Source: an uncultured Candidatus Saccharibacteria bacterium
GTDB taxonomy: Bacteria > Patescibacteriota > Doudnabacteria > UBA920
DNA: 64,000 nt
Reading direction: 5' to 3'
Assembly (NCBI GenBank): GCA_964436545.1
Contig: CAYTCJ010000001.1
Span: 78,392 to 142,391 of the forward strand
Part shown: positions 13,955 to 50,585 of the stretch, one piece after another
Numbering within the stretch: the stretch's first letter is position 1
Layout of the letters: each line of letters begins with the position of its first letter
The notes under the pieces: model-generated
What the model was told of the DNA's origin: nothing
What the model saw: only the letters and a program-made list of their open reading frames with translations
The model's database searches: none
Translations under genes and position numbers: made by a program

Positions 13955-14272
13955 AAGGTTTACGCACTACCATTTTTTTAAACTGGCAAAGCCAGATTTT
14001 CAAAAGTAGTTTTGGTCAATTTCTTCGTTATTTTCTTAAAATTTTACTCATCGTAGGCAGGGCTACGCTTTTGCAAAATCCCTGCCTGCCGGCAGGCAGG
14101 TTAAGCAAATGTCTTGAAATTGCCTCAATGCGTAAGCCCTATTTAAGTAATAGTGTAGCTTAAAACGTGAGTTGTTTCAATATTGGTAATTTGTTATAAT
14201 TGGCTTTGAATTAAGTATGAAGTAGCGGTAATTATTAAATTTTGCTTAATTCTGACTTCTTAATTTTATACT

Positions 14273-15915: not shown

Positions 15916-16309
15916 GCTACAATCCGAGGCGTTAATTAGTTTTGGGTCAATCCTCAAATGGGGTTTGGTAATGTGGTTAATTTTGTTTGTATTCAAGTGG
16001 TGGTTTTTGGCTTGGCTGGGGGCTGTGGCTTGGGTAGTGTGGGTGTATTACGTTTTAATTATTTTAGCCAGTCGAAAATTAAGCAGAAAGTTTGGAGTAA
16101 TTAATATTCTGGAAGCCGGATTTATTGGGATTATTTGGGGAATTATGATTTTATTTTTAGATTCTTTGGTGGCCAAAAAATTTTTAGATGCCTCTGTATT
16201 TGTGAATAAGGCATATTGGCTGAGTTATTTTGTAATGTTTGTGTCAGTATTTTTTTTACACCAAAAACGGCATATTGCTATTCGGCAGGAACAAGCGCAT
16301 CACCATTAG
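15902..16309 (+). CDS. Hypothetical multi-TM membrane protein (possibly MreD-like)
   Basis: 135 aa, about four TM helices, position downstream of mreB. Confidence 0.35.
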   Translation: MAKYKLQSEALISFGSILKWGLVMWLILFVFKWWFLAWLGAVAWVVWVYYVLIILASRKLSRKFGVINILEAGFIGIIWGIMILFLDSLVAKKFLDASVFVNKAYWLSYFVMFVSVFFLHQKRHIAIRQEQAHHH

Positions 16310-16488
16310 CAAACTCCCGCACCACCACTTTTTTAAACTGGCAAAGCCAGCTTTATAAAAAGTGGTTTTGGTCAATTTCTTCGTTATTTTTTGAGAATTT
16401 TATTCACCGTAGATAAACTACGCTTCATAAAATTCTCAAAAAATGCCTCGAAATTGACTCAATGCGGTAGTTTGCTTATTAAATTCCA

Positions 16489-16516
16489 TTGACAGTTTAG
16501 CTTAAAATGTTAATAT
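16489..16516 (+). promoter_or_regulatory. Sigma-70-like promoter (TTGACA, 16-nt spacer, TAATAT)
   Basis: Near-consensus -35 and -10 hexamers directly upstream of the T-box-like leader. Confidence 0.5.
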
Positions 16517-16524
16517 ACTTATTA

Positions 16525-16715
16525 AGTAAATAGTATAAAACTATAGCGAAGTCGCGATTCGCTTTTGTTGCTGGTAAAATGTCAGACGGTTAGGCTCGCC
16601 GTAAAAAGAGCAATAAGTGCAGACCGAATTTTCGGATTAAGGCAAAAGCAAGGTGGTACCGCGGGAAAACCCGCCCTTGTGAATAACTTATGGTTATTCT
16701 TAAAGGCGGGTTTTG
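16525..16715 (+). promoter_or_regulatory. T-box-like leader: conserved antiterminator box AAGGUGGUACCGCGG (16648-16665) followed by an intrinsic terminator (16668-16715)
   Basis: 13 of 14 match to the T-box consensus AGGGUGGNACCGCG; downstream hairpin AACCCGCCCTT...AAGGCGGGTTTT. Confidence 0.5.
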
Positions 16716-16747
16716 TAATTGCCCGAAAATTTTGAAGGGAGGAGCTC

Positions 16748-17065
16748 ATGAAAGTAATAACTATGCGGGCTCGTCCCGCGCTCTGTTTAACTTTTTTTCT
16801 TTTCTCCTTTCGGGTGTTTCGGCCCGTAGGGGAAAGCGAATTGAGGGTTCTTTGGTCCAGGTGGACCAGGGAAACAGTGGGAAAAACACTTCCCATACCC
16901 TCCACGAAACTCTCCGTTATACCCCTTAAAAAAGGTGTGGTGGAGGTAACCTTCTCCGGCTCAAGCAAGATGAGCCCGGAGGAAGCTAAAAAAGCCGGCG
17001 AATCGCTGGCAGAATTCTTGCAGTATCATCTGTTTAGTTATTCGCTCTGGCAACAGGGCAAATAA
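16748..17065 (+). CDS. Hypothetical protein downstream of T-box-like leader (coding status uncertain)
   Basis: Strong RBS GGGAGGAG 5 nt before ATG; 105 aa with no recognisable family; the region is also rich in RNA-like hairpins. Confidence 0.3.
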   Translation: MKVITMRARPALCLTFFLFSFRVFRPVGESELRVLWSRWTRETVGKTLPIPSTKLSVIPLKKGVVEVTFSGSSKMSPEEAKKAGESLAEFLQYHLFSYSLWQQGK

Positions 17066-17300
17066 AAAACTGATGATTTCCATGCGCGCTTTAAGTGTTT
17101 CGGAGGACATTTAAGGCGCGCTAAATTTTTATTTGACCCCCGTTAGAAGTTTTATAAACGAGTTATGAGCAATTAATAGAAATCCAAAGCATTGTCTTTA
17201 ACTTCTAACGGGGTTGACAAAAGGTAAACGAAAGTTTACTTTTAAGATATAAACTAATAACTTGCCACAAAACAGTTTTGAGTTATTACTTATTAATTAG

Positions 17301-18680: not shown

Positions 18681-18779
18681 GTTATCCACATGCTTGACAA
18701 ATAATTTTTGCATGATAATCTTAATTCACAATTGAATATTTGTATAGACCTTTTGCAAAAGGTCTTATGTATAAATCGT

Positions 18780-18998
18780 TAATTTGGAAGTCGCGCTCCA
18801 AAGATGATGTGTCGCAAAATCGACAACGGAAACCAATCCGTAAAATTTGGTTCGGAATTATTGTTCCGGCCTGAGAGTCTTAAAGTAATATTTAAGGAAA
18901 ACAAGGTGGTACCGCGGTGAATCAATATCACATAGTAGATTGAGAATCCGTCCTTGAAAATAACAGTTTTTGTTATTTTTGTGGACGGATTTTATTAT
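18780..18998 (+). promoter_or_regulatory. Second T-box-like leader: AAGGUGGUACCGCGG (18903-18917) followed by an intrinsic terminator (18944-18998)
   Basis: Identical 16-mer CAAGGTGGTACCGCGG to the copy at 16650; hairpin AATCCGTCC...GGACGGATTTTATT. Confidence 0.45.
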
Positions 18999-19203
18999 TA
19001 GTAGGATTTTCGCTTTTGCAAAATACTCCCTCTGTTATTCCGAGCGAGTCTTCGCCAGCTGGCGGACGAGCCGAGGAATCCCTTATATATTCAAGACTTA
19101 AGGGATCCCTCCCATCTCCGCCAAGGCTACGGTGGGCAGGCCACTCATCTAAATTTACTAAGATAGGCTTGCCCGACGAAGCTTTGAGCGTAGTCGGGTT
19201 GGG

Positions 19204-20148
19204 ATGACAACAAAGACGGAAGTTCTAAAAAATTTTATGAATTATTTAAAAGATAACGATCTGACGCCCAAGCAAATTAAAGAAATTTTAGAATTAAGTG
19301 CTAAAGTCAAAGCCGAACCACAAACTTTTAGCCAAATTTTAAAAGGTAAGACCGTGGCCTTGTTGTTTGAAAAGGCTTCGCTCAGAACCAAATTTACTTT
19401 ACAAATTGGCATTGAACAATTGGGGGGTTATTCGGTTTTAAATGATGGTAAAATTCCAGACAGAGAGCCCATTGCCGATATTGCCAGAAATTTGGAAAGG
19501 TGGGTAGATATGGTTGTGGCGCGGGTGTATGCGCATGCTACCTTGGAAGAATTGGCCAAAAATTGCTCGAAACCGGTAGTCAATGCTTTAAGTGACTTAT
19601 ATCATCCGTGTCAGATTCTAGCCGATATGCTTACTTTGCAAGAAAAGTTTGGAGATTTAAAAAAAATTAAATTAGCTTTTGTCGGCGATGGTAATAATGT
19701 GTGTAATTCGCTAATTTTAGCCGGGATGGCTTTGGGGTTAGATTTAAGAGTCGTAACACCTGCTTCCTACGAACCGGAACAAGCAGTGGTGGCAAAAGGC
19801 AAGAAGTTAGGGGTGGGGAGTCATGGCCGTTTATTGATTACCCATCGGATTGCGCAAGCCGTGAAAGGTGTGGATGTGATTTATACCGACACTTGGGTAA
19901 GCATGGGACAAGAAGCCGAGGCCGATGTGCGCAGAAAGGCTTTTAAAGGTTTTCAAGTAACCGAAACAATGTTTAAGTTAGCTAAAAAGTCAGCGGTGTT
20001 TATGCATTGTTTACCCAAGCATCCGAACGAAGAGGTGGCTGATGAAATTTTTGAATCGTCAAGGTCGTTGGTTTTTGAGCAAGCGGAAAATCGTTTGCAT
20101 ACCATAAAAGGTTTGCTGATTTATTTGAATTCGTTTAAAGATTCGTAG
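19204..20148 (+). CDS. argF: Ornithine carbamoyltransferase
   Basis: SLRTK carbamoyl-phosphate motif, DTWVSMG and HCLP ornithine-binding motifs. Confidence 0.85.
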   Translation: MTTKTEVLKNFMNYLKDNDLTPKQIKEILELSAKVKAEPQTFSQILKGKTVALLFEKASLRTKFTLQIGIEQLGGYSVLNDGKIPDREPIADIARNLERWVDMVVARVYAHATLEELAKNCSKPVVNALSDLYHPCQILADMLTLQEKFGDLKKIKLAFVGDGNNVCNSLILAGMALGLDLRVVTPASYEPEQAVVAKGKKLGVGSHGRLLITHRIAQAVKGVDVIYTDTWVSMGQEAEADVRRKAFKGFQVTETMFKLAKKSAVFMHCLPKHPNEEVADEIFESSRSLVFEQAENRLHTIKGLLIYLNSFKDS

Positions 20149-20160
20149 TCCGCTTGAAGT

Positions 20161-21858
20161 TTGGGTTTATGGTATGATGTAAGAGTGAAATTTATTAAAA
20201 ATTTTGGAAGCTATATATACAATAACCCTGCGGGACAATGGATTCCGGTGTTTTTAATTTTAGTTGTTGGCACAGGTTTTTATTTTCAAAATTTAGGCAC
20301 GAGTTACATTACGCTGTGGGACGAGGTTGTGCATGTGAATGTGGTAAAAAATTTAAGCCAAACTTGGTGGCCACCCAAGTTGCATTTAACCGACATTGGG
20401 AGCGATTTTCAGGATTGGACCAATAATTATATTTGGGTGCATAAACCGCTGTTACCTTTATATCTTCAGGCCTTGGTATATAAATTTTCTCCCACTTTGT
20501 GGGCGTTTCGTTTGCCTGGGGTGATTTTCGCTTTAATGACAGGTGGGTGTTTATTTTGGCTGGTGAAAAAACATTTTGACGTAATTTCGGCTTGGGTGGT
20601 TTGCAGTTTTTTTGTGTTTAACCCGTATGTTTTGGAACTGGTAAAAGGTCGGCAGTTTTCCGGACTTCACGATTTAATGTTTGTTTTTTTTGGAGTTTTG
20701 GCGTTAAACCAACTTTTAAAGATAAGTAATTTGGGAGGGAGTTGGTTGTGGTTTGGTTTATTGGCCGGACTGGGTTATTTAAGCAAAGGCGGATTGGCTT
20801 TTTTATTTTTTATCCCTCTGTTAGCCATAGTGGGGCATCAACCAGCTAAAAAAACCGTAAGTTTAAATTTTTTGTATGCCGGTTTGGTTACACTAATAAC
20901 TATTTTTCCGGAAAAAGTTTATTTGTTAATTGTGTATCCGGCGGAATATTTTTTTGAACAGAGTTTGCAATTTTTACACTTGTTTAAATATTTGGAATAT
21001 TGGGGCCGGCCGTGGGATTATTATTTAAGTGTGTATTTAAGAGATATGCTCACGCCCCAAATGTATTTGGTGGGCTTGGCCGGAGTGGGGTTTGGTTTGT
21101 ATGCTTGGACCAGAGATTTTAAACTAAAGCTTTTAACCTTGTGGGTGTTGGCTTTTTTAGTGCCCCTATCGGTGGGCATGACAAAAATTTCCAATTTTAT
21201 TTTGGCAATTTTGCCGGCAATATATATTTTACTCAGTCAATTTTTTCTTTGGCAAATGCGCACTAAAAAGTATGCGGAGGTTTCGGCTTGGGCGAGTTTA
21301 AGTCTGGTGGTGTATGGGTTAGTCCGTTTAGATGTTGGCAGAATTAAATTGCATTTGTTTCAAGACTTTGCCGGAGTGCAAAGATTCGCTCTGGCGGGGT
21401 TTTCGCTGTTAGGGTTGGCTGTGTTATACAGCGGGTTTAAATTTATAAGCCAAAAAATTAATTTGGCAAGGACGGCTAAAATTTTATTGGGACTGAGCGG
21501 GTTACTCATAGTAGGCACTTACTTACGGGCCATGCAAATTAATAATCGTAAGTTTTTAAGTTTTGCCGATTATCCGGTGCAGGCCAATTTAAGCACCGTA
21601 GCGTCTAACTTGTCCGCCACTTTACCGCACAATGCCATTGTGCTCACTTATTTTCCCACGCTCCCCAAGTCGCACTTATACTTTCAATATTTTGCCAGCC
21701 GAGATGCGATGGAAATTTATAATCGACAACCTTTATTTTTGTTATTACAACAACTGCCCAAAAATCGCCCGAAATTTGTTTTATCAGAAATACCTCTCAG
21801 TTTTGAAACTTTGGCCTTAATTACCCCAGAGAGGTTATATTTCTATCAAGTCAAATAA
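20161..21858 (+). CDS. GT-C fold glycosyltransferase (ArnT/PMT-like, family 39/83) integral membrane protein
   Basis: 565 aa with about 12 TM helices; N-terminal loop region typical of dolichyl/undecaprenyl-phosphate sugar transferases. Confidence 0.5.
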   Translation: MGLWYDVRVKFIKNFGSYIYNNPAGQWIPVFLILVVGTGFYFQNLGTSYITLWDEVVHVNVVKNLSQTWWPPKLHLTDIGSDFQDWTNNYIWVHKPLLPLYLQALVYKFSPTLWAFRLPGVIFALMTGGCLFWLVKKHFDVISAWVVCSFFVFNPYVLELVKGRQFSGLHDLMFVFFGVLALNQLLKISNLGGSWLWFGLLAGLGYLSKGGLAFLFFIPLLAIVGHQPAKKTVSLNFLYAGLVTLITIFPEKVYLLIVYPAEYFFEQSLQFLHLFKYLEYWGRPWDYYLSVYLRDMLTPQMYLVGLAGVGFGLYAWTRDFKLKLLTLWVLAFLVPLSVGMTKISNFILAILPAIYILLSQFFLWQMRTKKYAEVSAWASLSLVVYGLVRLDVGRIKLHLFQDFAGVQRFALAGFSLLGLAVLYSGFKFISQKINLARTAKILLGLSGLLIVGTYLRAMQINNRKFLSFADYPVQANLSTVASNLSATLPHNAIVLTYFPTLPKSHLYFQYFASRDAMEIYNRQPLFLLLQQLPKNRPKFVLSEIPLSFETLALITPERLYFYQVK

Positions 21859-32957: not shown

Positions 32958-34535
32958 TTAATCCAGTGCTTTCATTATTTGTTTTGCCAAAGCTTCGATG
33001 ACTGGAACACTCACAGAATTTCCTGCTTGTTTATATAAGGCAGAATCTGAAATTTTTGGCAGAACATAATCTTTCGGAAAACCTTGAATTCTAAAACATT
33101 CCAAAGGGGTTAATTTTCGAATCCCTTTTTTATCAATAATTATTGGAACATTATGTCCGCCCATTCCCATATTTGCAGTTAATGTTGGGCAAACACCACT
33201 TTTGTTTTCTCTTACATACTGCCTGCGCCATTGGTAGACTTTACCTTCCTCTTTTACATAATTTTTTAGCTTTTCAAATAATGGTTTGTTATTATAATAA
33301 TATTTTACTGGGACATCTTTCTCTAGTAAATCAGTAATTTTAGTATTTAATCTAACTGGACTAGGAAATTCAAATTTGTCTGAATAAATCTTATTTTTAA
33401 AACCTACAATATATATCCTTTCTCGATTTTGAGGGATATTTCCATATTCCATAGTGTTTAAAACCTTAATTTTTATATAGTAGCCTAAGCTTTGTAATGT
33501 CTCCCCAATAATTTTAAATGTTTTGCCTCCGTCATGACTCTTTAAGTTTTTTACATTTTCCAAAAGAAAACCTGCTGGTTTTCTAGCTTCTAAAATTCTT
33601 GCAATATCAAAAAATAAGTTCCCTCTTCCTTTTTCATCATTAAATCCTTGCCTATAACCTGCAATAGAAAAAGCCTGACAAGGAAAACCACCTAACAGAA
33701 AATCAAATTTTGGTAAATCATCAATTCCAATTTTTCTGATATCTTCAATAACTAGTTTTGTATCTTTAAAATTTAGATCATAAGTATCCTTGCATTGTGG
33801 TTCAAAATCATTTGCGAAAACAGTTTTAAATCCGGCATTTTCAAAACCGAGTCTAATTCCTCCCACTCCAGCAAATAAATCAATTGTTTTAAAATCAAAA
33901 TTGGTTTTTTTCGTTTCTATTTCCCCTGATGTATTATTTGGATTACTAATGACTTGAATGACAACGCCTCTGACTTCAACATCAGCTCGAAATAATGTAG
34001 GCATGTTTGGATTTCTTGGTTCTAAATTAAAGCCCTTTCCTTTTCTGTAAAGTTTTTTTAGTGTAGCTTGATTATCGTCGATAATAGCAACAACTGTTTG
34101 GCCATTTTCAGCCACTGATTGATGTTTAATTATTACAACATCACCATCAAAAATTCCATCGTTAATCATAGAATTTCCTACGACTCGGAGTGCGTAATAA
34201 CCCTCCGATGTTTTTATTTGGGGGTTAATTACCGATATGGATCCATTGCGTTCTTCAATTGCCGGTAGGGGATAGCCCGCTCTAATATTGCCAATTATTG
34301 GGATTTCAATTATTGATTTTATTTGTTTTTTTAGTGTTAAACTTCTTGCAGAATTTTGGGATTTGGCAAGATAACCTTTAATTTTTAACGAATTAATATG
34401 TTCGTGGATAGTGGAAACTGCTTTAAGTCTTAATTTTTTTCGTATTTCTTCAATTGTTGGCGAAATACCGTTTTCAGCGATGTAGGTATTTATAAAATCA
34501 AAGACTTGTTTTTGTTTTTTAGTAAGGGATAGCAT
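32958..34535 (-). CDS. Fusion protein: LexA-like repressor (wHTH plus S24 autopeptidase) fused to a DNA (cytosine-5)-methyltransferase
   Basis: N-terminal 200 aa collinear with E. coli LexA (LTKKQKQVFDFI..., cleavage site AG in IRAGYP, GNSM Ser, ATLKKL Lys); C-terminal FKTIDLFAGVGG (motif I), GGFPCQAFSIAG (motif IV) and ENV (motif VI) of C5-MTases. Confidence 0.8.
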   Translation of the reverse strand: MLSLTKKQKQVFDFINTYIAENGISPTIEEIRKKLRLKAVSTIHEHINSLKIKGYLAKSQNSARSLTLKKQIKSIIEIPIIGNIRAGYPLPAIEERNGSISVINPQIKTSEGYYALRVVGNSMINDGIFDGDVVIIKHQSVAENGQTVVAIIDDNQATLKKLYRKGKGFNLEPRNPNMPTLFRADVEVRGVVIQVISNPNNTSGEIETKKTNFDFKTIDLFAGVGGIRLGFENAGFKTVFANDFEPQCKDTYDLNFKDTKLVIEDIRKIGIDDLPKFDFLLGGFPCQAFSIAGYRQGFNDEKGRGNLFFDIARILEARKPAGFLLENVKNLKSHDGGKTFKIIGETLQSLGYYIKIKVLNTMEYGNIPQNRERIYIVGFKNKIYSDKFEFPSPVRLNTKITDLLEKDVPVKYYYNNKPLFEKLKNYVKEEGKVYQWRRQYVRENKSGVCPTLTANMGMGGHNVPIIIDKKGIRKLTPLECFRIQGFPKDYVLPKISDSALYKQAGNSVSVPVIEALAKQIMKALD

Positions 34536-49065: not shown

Positions 49066-49139
49066 GCGGGATTCGTACAGTGGCAGTATGCGACCTTCCC
49101 AAGGTTGAGACGAGGGTTCGATTCCCTTATCCCGCTCCA
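49066..49139 (+). tRNA. tRNA-Gly (anticodon CCC)
   Basis: Manual fold: acceptor GCGGGAU/AUCCCGC, anticodon stem CGACC/GGUUG, loop UUCCCAA, T-loop TTCGATT, encoded CCA. Confidence 0.85.
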
Positions 49140-49289
49140 AAAAGTAAAACTTGATAATATAAAAAGTCATTGAAAATTATATGGGGCAATGGCGCCAATT
49201 ATCGTTGAGAATGATTTAGGAAAAATTGTATAAAGTTTGTAAAATTACTCTATTTTATGTATAATTAAGGCAATTAAAGCCTTTTTTAT

Positions 49290-50585
49290 ATGACATCAAA
49301 AAATCTAAGTCTGGAAAGCTACAAGGGTACTCGGGATTTTTATCCCGCAGATCACTTTATTCAGGACTATATTTTTAGCGTTTGGCGCAAGGTGGCTAAA
49401 AAATACGGTTACGTGGAATACAGCGCTTCCATTTTAGAAGAAACCGAGTTATACAAGGCCAAAAGTGGCGATGAAATTATCAATGAACAAACCTATTCGT
49501 TTATGGACCGCGGGGGTCGGGAAGTTACGATTCGTCCGGAAATGACTCCTACGGTGGCGAGAATGGTGGCGCAAAAGCGCAAAGAGCTATCTTTACCTCT
49601 GCGGTGGTTTAGTATTCCCAATTTGTTTCGTTACGAAAAACCTCAACGAGGCAGACTTAGAGAACATTGGCAATTAAATGTCGATATGTTTGGCGTGGAA
49701 GGCAAAGACGCCGATGTGGAAATTGTGCGCTTAGCTTACGATATGATGAAAACTTTTGGCGCCAAAGATGAACAGTTTGTGATTCATTTAAACAGCCGAA
49801 AATTTCTGAATCATTTATTAATTGACTTTTTAAGGCTAAATGAAACGGAAAAGAAAAATACCGCTAAACTTTTAGACCGAATGCGTAAATTAAGTCCCAA
49901 AGAATTTGAGGAACAGGGTGAGGCAATTTTAGGTAACGCCAGATTTAAAGTTTTGCATAAAATTATTGGCACCAACGATTTAAACGATTTACCGGAAGAA
50001 ATTCAAGCTCATGAATCGGTAGGTGAATTAAAAGCCATTATGCAAGAGTTGAACTCCTTGGGTGTTAAAAATTTGGCTTTTGATATTGGTCTTGTTCGGG
50101 GTTTTGATTATTACACCGGCACGGTGTTTGAAATGTACGACACGAGTCCTTCTAACCCCAGAGCTTTGTTTGGGGGAGGTAGGTATGACGATTTAGTGAG
50201 TATATTTGGCGTGGAAAAAGTTAGTGGCATTGGGTTTGGGTGGGGTGATGTAACGACTCGTGACTTTTTGGAAACTTACAATTTATTGCCTAAGTACAAA
50301 ACGGAAGTGGATTTATACATTTGTCATTTGGAAGGGTTTAAAACTCCCTCAGTGACGTTGGCTGACGATTTAAGAAAATTAGGCTTAAATGTGGCAGTGG
50401 ATTTAACCGATAAAAAATTACCCGCGCAAATTAAATTTGCCGACCGAGAAGGGATAGGGTTTATTTTGGTAATTGGCGATGAAGAAGTGAAAAATAATAA
50501 ATATAAACTTAAAAATTTAAACTCCGGCGAAGAGCAGACTATGTTTAAAGAGTCGGTGGTGGAATTTATTAAAGCCCAAAAATAA
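49290..50585 (+). CDS. hisS: Histidyl-tRNA synthetase
   Basis: KGTRDFYP, RPEMTP and RYEKPQRGRLREHWQ class II motifs; anticodon-binding C-terminal domain. Confidence 0.85.
   Translation: MTSKNLSLESYKGTRDFYPADHFIQDYIFSVWRKVAKKYGYVEYSASILEETELYKAKSGDEIINEQTYSFMDRGGREVTIRPEMTPTVARMVAQKRKELSLPLRWFSIPNLFRYEKPQRGRLREHWQLNVDMFGVEGKDADVEIVRLAYDMMKTFGAKDEQFVIHLNSRKFLNHLLIDFLRLNETEKKNTAKLLDRMRKLSPKEFEEQGEAILGNARFKVLHKIIGTNDLNDLPEEIQAHESVGELKAIMQELNSLGVKNLAFDIGLVRGFDYYTGTVFEMYDTSPSNPRALFGGGRYDDLVSIFGVEKVSGIGFGWGDVTTRDFLETYNLLPKYKTEVDLYICHLEGFKTPSVTLADDLRKLGLNVAVDLTDKKLPAQIKFADREGIGFILVIGDEEVKNNKYKLKNLNSGEEQTMFKESVVEFIKAQK

Follow-up and report, generated by a model that had tools for sequence, protein, structure and literature searches.

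Class I T-boxes, the type captured by the Rfam model RF00230 and represented by the Bacillus subtilis tyrS and glyQS leaders, have a long Stem I (with a K-turn, an internal Specifier Loop with an S-turn, an AG bulge and distal interdigitated T-loops) and control genes for aminoacyl-tRNA synthetases, biosynthesis and transport. Transcriptional T-boxes generally need such a long Stem I with its platform binding the tRNA elbow, whereas an ultrashort (US) Stem I is found in translational T-boxes (PMC7583486, section 6.2). US T-boxes are known from the ileS genes of Actinobacteria (Mycobacterium, Nocardia), where they act on translation (Sherwood, Grundy and Henkin 2015, as described in PMC7583486 and preprint 10.1101/2023.02.28.530422), and the 2023 preprint (10.1101/2023.02.28.530422) states that every ultrashort T-box RNA controls an ileS gene in response to tRNA-Ile. 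Here we analyse a T-box-like leader (leader 1) located upstream of an open reading frame of 105 amino acids (ORF105) in a 64,000-nt stretch, called the window below, of contig CAYTCJ010000001.1 (assembly GCA_964436545.1, positions 78,392 to 142,391), from an uncultured Candidatus Saccharibacteria bacterium that GTDB places in the Doudnabacteria. Leader 1 carries a 19-nt hairpin at the place of Stem I together with an intrinsic terminator. Based on its sequence and on its comparison with related loci, we propose, with a probability of about 0.7, that it is a functional, minimal, terminator-coupled T-box sensing tRNA-Arg.

The T-box 14-mer of leader 1 (AAGGUGGUACCGCG, positions 16650-16663) agrees with the consensus AGGGUGGNACCGCG, as quoted in PMC11297988, at 13 of 14 positions, just as a first-pass annotation of this DNA had claimed. 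It forms part of an antiterminator (-14.2 kcal/mol) in which the UGGU of a 7-nt bulge is complementary to the 3′-ACCA end of a tRNA with discriminator A73. The overlapping intrinsic terminator claimed in the same annotation was recovered by folding (16666-16714, -25.9 kcal/mol, z = -6.6), and 0 of 200 shuffled sequences were as stable. Both structures have CCCGCCCUU in common and are mutually exclusive, the terminator using the 3′ strand of the antiterminator before running into a U-tract. The near-consensus sigma-70 promoter also stood up to inspection (10/12 consensus positions, TG-extended). Its -35 and -10 positions are unchanged in L001 (labels of this kind denote the fetched loci of relatives) despite the divergence of the surrounding sequence. 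Transcription is predicted to start at about 16523, only ~22 nt upstream of Stem I, and therefore no long Stem I is possible in this leader, which measures ~135 nt from Stem I through the antiterminator. Across the leaders with a short Stem I, promoters lie 22-35 nt upstream of the hairpin. An insertion of ~25 nt separates the promoter from the conserved leader in L035 (3177-3202), L040 and L042, relative to the window, showing that the promoter-to-Stem I distance is unconstrained. The elements of leader 1 and of the cassette that it precedes are the following.

16489-16516 (+): promoter, with -35 TTGACA, a 16-nt spacer and TG-extended -10 TAATAT
16530-16544 (+): small 5′ hairpin AUAGU-AUAAA-ACUAU, directly before Stem I
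16545-16563 (+): ultrashort Stem I, AGCGAA / loop GUCGCGA / UUCGCU, a 19-nt hairpin with the proposed specifier CGC at 16553-16555
16571-16585 (+): minimal Stem II, CUGG / UAAAAUG / UCAG
16586-16611 (+): Stem IIA/B pseudoknot, with IIA ACGG (16586-89) / CCGU (16599-602) and IIB GCUC (16594-97) / GAGC (16608-11)
16615-16643 (+): Stem III region, with purine-rich AAGUG, the hairpin CCGA-AUUU-UCGG (16624-16635) and an A-rich 3′ flank
16649-16679 (+): T-box and antiterminator, with A1 CAAGG/CCUUG, the 7-nt bulge UGGUACC and A2 GCGGG-AAAA-CCCGC
16666-16714, tail to 16716 (+): terminator AAAACCCGCCCUU...AAAGGCGGGUUUU, with an inner AAUAAC/GUUAUU hairpin and a UUUUGU tail
16715-17114 (+): cargo cassette, comprising a 5′ untranslated region with the Shine-Dalgarno sequence (SD) GGGAGGAG at 16737-16744, ORF105 and the 5′ half of the downstream terminator
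16748-17065 (+): ORF105, an orphan of 105 amino acids preceded by the SD GGGAGGAG
17084-17131 (+): strong terminator closing the cassette, with a 17-bp stem followed by a T-rich tail

Folding of the leader in search of Stem I and the specifier, as suggested by the first-pass annotation, yielded the 19-nt hairpin with CGC as the likely specifier. Its 7-nt loop (G-U-CGC-G-A) is laid out like an anticodon loop, the triplet being preceded by U and followed by a purine. The small hairpin in front carries one mismatch in L001, and the leaders of argF type in L001, L035 and L044 have a variable hairpin at the same place. Downstream, the AAAAU loop motif of Stem II is present in all copies of the leader, and a conserved CCGUAAAA occupies the F-box position of leader 1.

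At its gathering score (93 bits) RF00230 found no match in the whole window, and a scan with the whole of Rfam, likewise at gathering threshold, returned only three tRNAs. In a permissive local scan, RF00230 gave a full-length match to 16511-16681 (36.9 bits, E = 2e-6) in which Stem II, IIA/B, Stem III (aligned to 16615-16643) and the antiterminator were matched, and 68 Stem I consensus positions were reduced to 23 nt: the short stem was placed on the helix just below the Specifier Loop and the remainder of Stem I was deleted. Alignments of these leaders to the model drop 45-66 nt of Stem I, and the shortfall in score arises because ~45 nt of Stem I are absent. The check with RF00230 proposed in the first-pass annotation is hence negative at the gathering threshold, an outcome that is outweighed by the sub-threshold match, the anatomy and the comparative data presented below. 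Other sub-threshold Rfam matches in 16300-17300 (microRNA, small nucleolar RNA and small RNA models) were rejected as hairpin artefacts.

A motif scan of the window and of the fetched relative loci revealed a second leader (leader 2), a paralogue of leader 1 located upstream of argF. RF00230 matches it locally at 18771-18958 with 42.3 bits (E = 6e-8), again below the gathering score. This second T-box at 18.8 kb had been overlooked in the first-pass annotation, as had the ultrashort Stem I and the link to arginine. Its elements are listed here with the gene that it controls.

18783-18998 (+): leader 2 (T-box 2), upstream of argF
18783-18802 (+): Stem I, UUUGGA / AGUCGCGC / UCCAAA, with CGC at 18792-18794
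18810-18825 (+): Stem II, a hairpin of 4-5 bp with the AAAAU loop
18826-18852 (+): IIA/B pseudoknot
18853-18868 (+): extra hairpin
18879-18896 (+): Stem III
18902-18956 (+): antiterminator, with a UGGU bulge and a 27-nt insertion in A2
18943-18993 (+): terminator, followed by UUUUAUUAUU
19237-20148 (+): argF (ornithine carbamoyltransferase), controlled by leader 2

Leaders 1 and 2 share one plan: a short hairpin for Stem I, a Stem II with the AAAAU loop, the ACGG/CCGU helix of IIA, a IIB pseudoknot, Stem III, the bulge UGGUACC and a terminator with the inner AAUAAC/GUUAUU hairpin. Leader 1 is the shorter of the two, being devoid of the extra hairpin and of the insertion in A2. The T-box 14-mer is identical in leader 2 (18904-18917). 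The 64-kb window contains the exact 15-mer AAGGTGGTACCGCGG only at 16650 and 18903, and both occurrences belong to leaders that have a terminator of their own. We therefore rejected the idea that this motif belongs to a generic dispersed repeat with copies lacking terminators, one of two outcomes that the first-pass annotation had named as fatal to its proposal.

Comparison among copies supports this common architecture. With no training data other than the three argF-type leaders, a covariance model retrieves all copies of leader 1 with 40-50 bits (E ~1e-10), and nothing further in 319 kb of sequence from the candidate phyla radiation (CPR). In the alignment of these three sequences 98% of the cells are paired and 8 pairs are changed on both sides, and all four pairs of the IIB pseudoknot covary. 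When 10 copies are aligned, 99% of the cells pair, and 6/6 pairs of Stem I and 5/5 pairs of Stem II change on both sides; none of 500 shuffles equalled the covariation score, and sliding the partners lowered pairing to 30-50%, in an alignment that was fitted to the model and whose copies are mutually related. Individual helices show the same behaviour. IIA reads ACGG/CCGU in all copies but T-box 1 of L001 (AUGG/CCGU, a C-G pair replaced by a U-G wobble), and IIB of leader 1 changes from GCUC/GAGC to ACUC/GAGU in L001, a compensatory G-C to A-U exchange. In paralogues and orthologues IIB takes the forms AACCAA/UUGGUU, GUUC/GAAC, CCCAA/UUGGG and AUCU/AGAU. Stem III is fully exchanged in the argF-type leaders (CUUAAA/UUUAAG, CCGCCCUUUG/CAAAGAGUGG, CUGCC/GGCAG) with its helix retained. 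The leader of L047 has altered Stem I (CCGGA/UCCGG), Stem II (CCGA/UCGG), IIB (CCCAA/UUGGG), Stem III and the first pair of A2 (A-U), and has kept its loops. In the 10 copies, the A1 helix is invariant and the first A2 pair is G-C, G-U or A-U.

The Stem I loop, which would serve as specifier, reads G-(U/C)-C-G-C-G-(A/C/U) across the copies, and its core G-(U/C)-CGC-G is invariant in 10 leaders. Since the second position of the loop varies between U and C, GUC and UCG are excluded as specifier, leaving CGC (Arg) or GCG (Ala). The targets that can be interpreted are all arginine genes, namely argF, argFGH and, in L047, a gene for an ArgA-like GNAT acetyltransferase. The CGC triplet is always followed by G, and its third position is C, the base that T-boxes prefer at this codon position (PMC7583486). 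As for the discriminator, the bulge is UGGU in most copies, which predicts A73, and UGGC in L050, which predicts G73. Both bases are possible in tRNA-Arg. Because of the loop core, the arginine targets, the third-position C, the purine that follows and the fit of the discriminator, CGC is most likely the specifier and tRNA-Arg most likely the tRNA sensed.

The same architecture and mechanism could operate with GCG (Ala), or another reading of the loop, as the specifier, in which case a tRNA other than tRNA-Arg would be sensed. GCG followed by A or C is also invariant in the loop GUCGCG(A/C/U), and canonical T-boxes have their codon at the 3′ end of the Specifier Loop with a purine after it, so that leader 1 would read GCG-A. 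Moreover, tRNA-Ala carries A73, in agreement with the UGGU bulge. We nevertheless consider this unlikely, given that arginine genes (argF, argFGH or the one for the ArgA-like acetyltransferase) lie behind all leaders whose target can be interpreted and that the preference for C in third position (PMC7583486) speaks for CGC. In the argF-type copies, furthermore, GCG is followed by C or U instead of a purine, while CGC is always followed by G. The UGGC bulge of L050 implies G73, a base that is unlikely for tRNA-Ala.

Alternatively, leader 1 could be a duplicate of the argF leader in decay, no longer able to sense tRNA and acting only as a leaky constitutive terminator, or playing no role. Its being shorter than the argF leader (no extra hairpin, no A2 insertion), its weak Stem II, the orphan nature of its cargo and the presence in L009 of an ORF105 homologue with no T-box would all be compatible with decay. 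Yet leader 1 is the best-conserved local segment, with an identity of 0.98 to L035 against 0.78-0.85 for the flanking genes, and of 0.87 to L001, where the flanking genes reach 0.69-0.81. All its functional elements are intact, its near-consensus promoter is retained and compensatory changes have occurred within this leader itself, affecting IIB in L001 and, in L047, Stem I, Stem II, IIB, Stem III and A2. This makes loss of function quite improbable.

The first-pass annotation had described the 105-aa ORF as the sole coding capacity downstream of the leader; indeed, 16748-17065 is the only ORF before the next terminator and belongs to no recognisable family. It had also left two explanations, a T-box with an unusual target or a downstream region that is not what it seems. 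The first gains support from the conservation in orthologues, the covariation, the argF paralogue and the fact that ORF105 is coding and orphan. The second holds in part, as the mRNA of the cargo is abnormally structured and the cargo differs among close relatives, but it does not hold for the ORF itself. Between the window and L001 (77% nucleotide identity in ORF105), substitutions number 18, 15 and 46 at codon positions 1, 2 and 3, a peak that moves with the frame in two control frames, and codon changes are synonymous in 33 cases and non-synonymous in 26. None of the five homologues has an indel or an interruption of the frame, even at an amino-acid identity as low as 53%. These patterns indicate that ORF105 is a real, selected coding gene.

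Its family is very small: a set of 5.8 billion proteins yielded three clusters, and one of 1.84 billion yielded two representatives. Searches against Pfam, NCBIfam, PHROGs, PADLOC and PDB sequences (profile search) gave no match. AlphaFold2 predicts the order beta-hairpin, helix, beta-hairpin, long helix (predicted local distance difference test 79, predicted template modelling score 0.70), and Foldseek found nothing below E 0.01 in the PDB; weak matches to generic alpha+beta folds (YbjN, ACT-like, one PheRS-beta domain; E >= 0.01, template modelling (TM) score <= 0.54) were not interpreted. A signal peptide was dropped from consideration, the N-terminus being a predicted beta-hairpin and non-hydrophobic in P0004.

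The cargo transcripts are unusually structured. Compared to dinucleotide shuffles, the folding of the ORF105 mRNA has z = -6.2 in the window and -8.4 in L001, and that of an unrelated cargo gene of relatives (ORF112, described below) has z = -8.0, against a mean of -0.5 (standard deviation 1.2, minimum -3.9) for 20 length-matched control segments of coding sequence taken from the window. RNAalifold applied to the ORF105 family gives 95 pairs in about ten local hairpins, with 92% of cells paired. Fifteen of the 95 pairs are changed on both sides, a number equalled in 0 of 500 shuffles and ranging from 3 to 7 in slid controls, for a structure derived from the same five sequences on which it is evaluated. 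Some compensatory pairs consist of two synonymous changes, for example TCC to TCT together with CCG to CCA. Both the protein and the RNA structure of the cargo genes hence seem to be under constraint. The strong folding of these mRNAs might stabilise the message, slow down translation or reflect an additional function at the RNA level.

These same data could be taken to mean that the ORF at 16748-17065 is spurious and that the leader controls a structured non-coding RNA. Folding scores of -6.2 and -8.4 over a coding baseline of -0.5 +/- 1.2, compensatory changes in 15/95 consensus pairs that 0/500 shuffles equal, the elevated G+C content and a 128-aa ORF that is open on the opposite strand too would fit such a reading. 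It is made very improbable, however, by the excess of third-position substitutions in the ORF105 frame only, by the 33 synonymous versus 26 non-synonymous changes, by the open and indel-free frame in five homologues down to 53% amino-acid identity, by the SD conserved at the right distance, by the confident and compact AlphaFold2 fold, and by the lack of any Rfam match.

The way in which leader 1 would be read out is suggested by the region between its terminator and ORF105, where the SD (16737-16744) lies 23 nt downstream of the terminator hairpin and is unpaired in the OFF fold. The G+C-rich hairpin, the U-tract directly after it and the unpaired SD point to transcription attenuation rather than sequestration of the ribosome-binding site. 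Every ultrashort Stem I T-box described so far acts on translation (preprint 10.1101/2023.02.28.530422), and in L001, L035 and L044 only ~20 nt separate the end of the argF-type leader from the start codon. A switch of leader 1 acting on translation through a sequestrator can nevertheless be set aside as highly improbable, because its alternative hairpin is G+C-rich with a U-tract directly after it and its SD, 23 nt past that hairpin, is not paired by it.

Under the proposed tRNA-Arg-sensing mechanism, transcription would start ~22 nt before the 19-nt hairpin, whose 7-nt loop would offer the codon CGC to the tRNA anticodon in a kissing interaction of anticodon-loop style. Stem II, with its 4-5 bp and invariant AAAAU loop, and the IIA/B pseudoknot would buttress the codon-anticodon helix and substitute for the platform contacting the tRNA elbow. 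The 3′-ACCA of an uncharged tRNA would pair with the UGGU bulge and stabilise the antiterminator (-14 kcal/mol), so that RNA polymerase would read into the cargo gene. With tRNA charged or absent, the more stable terminator (-26 kcal/mol) would form and transcription would end at 16714.

Several observations weigh against this interpretation of leader 1. Its RF00230 score of 36.9 bits is far under the gathering score of 93, and neither leader has an identifiable long Stem I or K-turn, only a hairpin of 19-20 nt. Transcriptional T-boxes need the distal platform of Stem I for fast capture of the tRNA (2020 review PMC7583486, section 6.2), and a terminator-coupled ultrashort version would hence be at a kinetic disadvantage. 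No S-turn was recognised by eye in Stem II, a position filled by a covarying hairpin of 4-5 bp, and the isolated Stem II hairpin of leader 1 is only marginally stable by folding, so that it probably needs its tertiary context. The arginine specificity would follow from gene context, GCG (Ala) sitting in the same loop; no tRNA-Arg gene with an ACG or GCG anticodon is present in the window or in the fetched relative loci, and the cargo ORF105 has no known connection to arginine. Finally, all copies come from one narrow lineage, and the 10 copies are phylogenetically non-independent.

Set against the described classes, leaders 1 and 2 share with the US T-boxes a Stem I cut to a short hairpin with the specifier in its terminal loop, the absence of a platform for the tRNA elbow, the reliance on a decoding module of Stem II and IIA/B, Stem III and a discriminator in a UGGN bulge. 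They differ in that US T-boxes use a sequestrator that hides the SD, in contrast to the intrinsic terminator with U-tract of leader 1; that they regulate ileS in response to tRNA-Ile through an AUC specifier, while leaders 1 and 2 and their counterparts in relatives have no AUC in the loop, a proposed CGC and, as targets, arg genes, a GNAT gene or orphan cargo; that their hosts are Actinobacteria and not Patescibacteria; and that their Stem II is an elongated helix with an S-turn instead of a hairpin of 4-5 bp with an AAAAU loop. With class I T-boxes, leader 1 shares the 14-nt T-box (13/14), the A1/bulge/A2 antiterminator opposed to a terminator, the F-box-type pseudoknot, Stem III, a default OFF state and a sigma-70-type promoter. 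The elaborate long Stem I of that class is absent from both leaders, which for this reason score 37-42 bits versus 93, and the target of leader 1, an orphan, is not demonstrably one of the gene types that class I T-boxes control. Leader 1 is not a plain member of either group: it falls below the RF00230 threshold and has no class I Stem I, and it departs from the US class in sequestrator, ileS target and actinobacterial host. The combination of an ultrashort Stem I, a terminator, an apparent arginine specifier, a CPR host and a small orphan cargo was not found among the described T-box types. Our literature search found no paper on T-boxes in Patescibacteria/CPR, which is not proof of their absence elsewhere.

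A T-box driving a very small protein has a precedent in Bacillus subtilis rtpA (anti-TRAP), which is controlled through one tRNA and provides an example of regulatory cargo related to the same amino acid. For anti-TRAP, both a partner and a function are known and the leader is canonical with a long Stem I, whereas ORF105 has no recognisable relatives or partner and its cargo position is interchangeable between strains. The latter is evident from the comparison of the window with L035: the two are homologous through the leader up to 16714 and again from 17115 onward, a position in the 3′ half of the downstream terminator. In between, the place of ORF105 is taken by an unrelated orphan ORF of 112 amino acids (ORF112) in L035 and in four metagenomic contigs, likewise behind this leader. 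The fold predicted for ORF112 (beta-alpha-beta-beta-alpha-beta) resembles M20-peptidase dimerisation domains and is generically ferredoxin-like (E ~1e-4, TM score ~0.5). BLASTP between ORF105 and ORF112 gives E = 0.1, a level at which homology is not demonstrable. The content of the slot, taken as the region between the membrane-protein genes and dinB, is as follows.

T-box and ORF105: the window, L001, L007
T-box and ORF112: L035, L040, L042, L043 (L041 is cut inside the leader)
T-box and ArgA-like GNAT: L047
Single-domain GNAT and ORF105 homologue, no T-box: L009
Single-domain GNAT only, no T-box detected: L010
Nothing: L044

The first ~110 nt of L008 (1-110, a JGI contig) are G+C-rich and unrelated to the leader, joining ORF105 inside its N-terminal codons; we considered this divergent 5′ end as a different leader and rejected it, as it is most likely a chimeric contig end. 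The cargo genes are foreign in composition, judging from a G+C content of 0.48 (ORF105) and 0.55 (ORF112), and of 0.53 and 0.65 at third codon positions, for genomes of 0.37-0.40. In the simplest history, the leader of the arg operon (argF, or argF-argG-argH in relatives) was copied, and the duplicate lost part of its length and came to control a variable cassette slot as leader 1. We can tentatively go further and imagine an arginine-starvation-gated cargo slot, in which this duplicate would control exchanged, horizontally acquired small genes (ORF105, ORF112, ArgA-like GNAT) whose transcripts are under dual selection for a ferredoxin-like small protein and a conserved, exceptionally stable RNA structure, and which could act as dual-function RNA/protein regulators, or as very long-lived messages, tuning the arginine economy of an episymbiont. 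We regard this extended scenario as speculative and rather doubtful.

The arginine genes themselves are well identified. The argF product matches Pfam OTCace_N and OTCace and the NCBIfam ornithine carbamoyltransferase (OTCase) model (365 bits versus a cutoff of 306), and its start at 19237 was inferred from the orthologues in L001 and L035, where argF is also preceded by orthologues of leader 2. Such an orthologue stands before a complete argF-argG-argH in L044 (74% OTCase identity) and in L048 (70% OTCase identity, different neighbourhood), the latter with a perfect promoter (TTGACA-17-TATAAT) ~35 nt upstream of the hairpin. L050 has a truncated copy of the leader before argFGH. In L047 the leader at the position of leader 1 precedes a gene for an ArgA-like N-acetyltransferase (tandem GNAT), followed by dinB and by an argF with no leader of its own. 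The best NCBIfam matches of this GNAT are ArgA-type amino-acid N-acetyltransferases, below the curated cut-off, and it is 69% identical to the GNAT encoded after argH in L044. No more distant members were found in 30 other CPR dinB loci, nor in L045, L046 and L049.

Directly after argF (20149-20161 in the window), a PMT_2 gene follows in the window, L001 and L035, at the place where relatives (compared in L044, 5917-9285, and L048, 4402-6845) have argG, argH and an ArgA-like GNAT. In the lineage of the window, argF appears to be the only one of these genes left under T-box control, and its product may operate in either the anabolic or the catabolic direction. Between the leader 2 terminator and the start of argF lies a 236-nt insertion (19001-19236), G+C-rich, highly structured (z = -5.8) and containing the palindrome ATTCCGAGCGAG...CGAGGAAT. 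L001 and L035 lack it at the orthologous sites; it is single-copy in the window and partially matched inside L044. This insertion may uncouple argF from the riboswitch or supply a promoter. An 89-aa ORF and a ParE/YafQ-family toxin gene are inserted between dinB and the argF T-box in L044 (4097-4639).

The window is chromosomal CPR DNA of ~40% G+C. Its gene neighbours include mreB, two small membrane ORFs, dinB, argF, a PMT_2 glycosyltransferase, glycolysis genes, pilins and hisS, and the closest relatives of dinB and argF are found in metagenome-assembled genomes of Patescibacteria (CPR). The two arginine-type leaders are the only T-boxes in the 64-kb window, and neither precedes a synthetase gene; hisS (within 49066-50585) has a tRNA-Gly gene in front and no T-box. 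A direct repeat of ~95 bp (13963-14056 and 16318-16412, 87-88% identical) brackets the mreB-ORF164-ORF135 block. Its second copy is part of an inverted repeat (16386-16444, 27-nt arms) that lies just upstream of the T-box promoter and resembles a bidirectional terminator. A long inverted repeat (17138-17213, CCCCGTTAGAAGTT...AACTTCTAACGGGG around ~48 nt) is located between the cassette terminator and the dinB promoter; it is kept in L035 and L008 and is the source of a spurious mir-969 Rfam match. The dinB promoter contains, between its -35 (TTGACA) and its -10, a perfect palindrome (17222-17240, GGTAAAC-GAAA-GTTTAC) that is kept in L035, L008, L009 and L044 and is the sole perfect TAAAC-N4-GTTTA site of the window; it is probably an SOS (LexA) operator. 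Further away, a 525-aa ORF (32958-34535, minus strand) encodes a complete LexA (DNA-binding domain and S24 peptidase) fused to a C-5 cytosine DNA methyltransferase, an unusual domain combination.

Leaders of this type are invisible to standard Rfam annotation (37-42 versus 93 bits), and the class may therefore be under-counted. If functional, they would provide a very compact natural scaffold for engineering and a direct test of whether elbow contact is needed for co-transcriptional tRNA sensing; were the cargo-slot scenario true, a transcriptional T-box could work without any contact to the tRNA elbow. The orphan cargo would flag small proteins as part of an arginine-starvation response, and CPR bacteria, being dependent on host-derived amino acids, would monitor tRNA charging directly.

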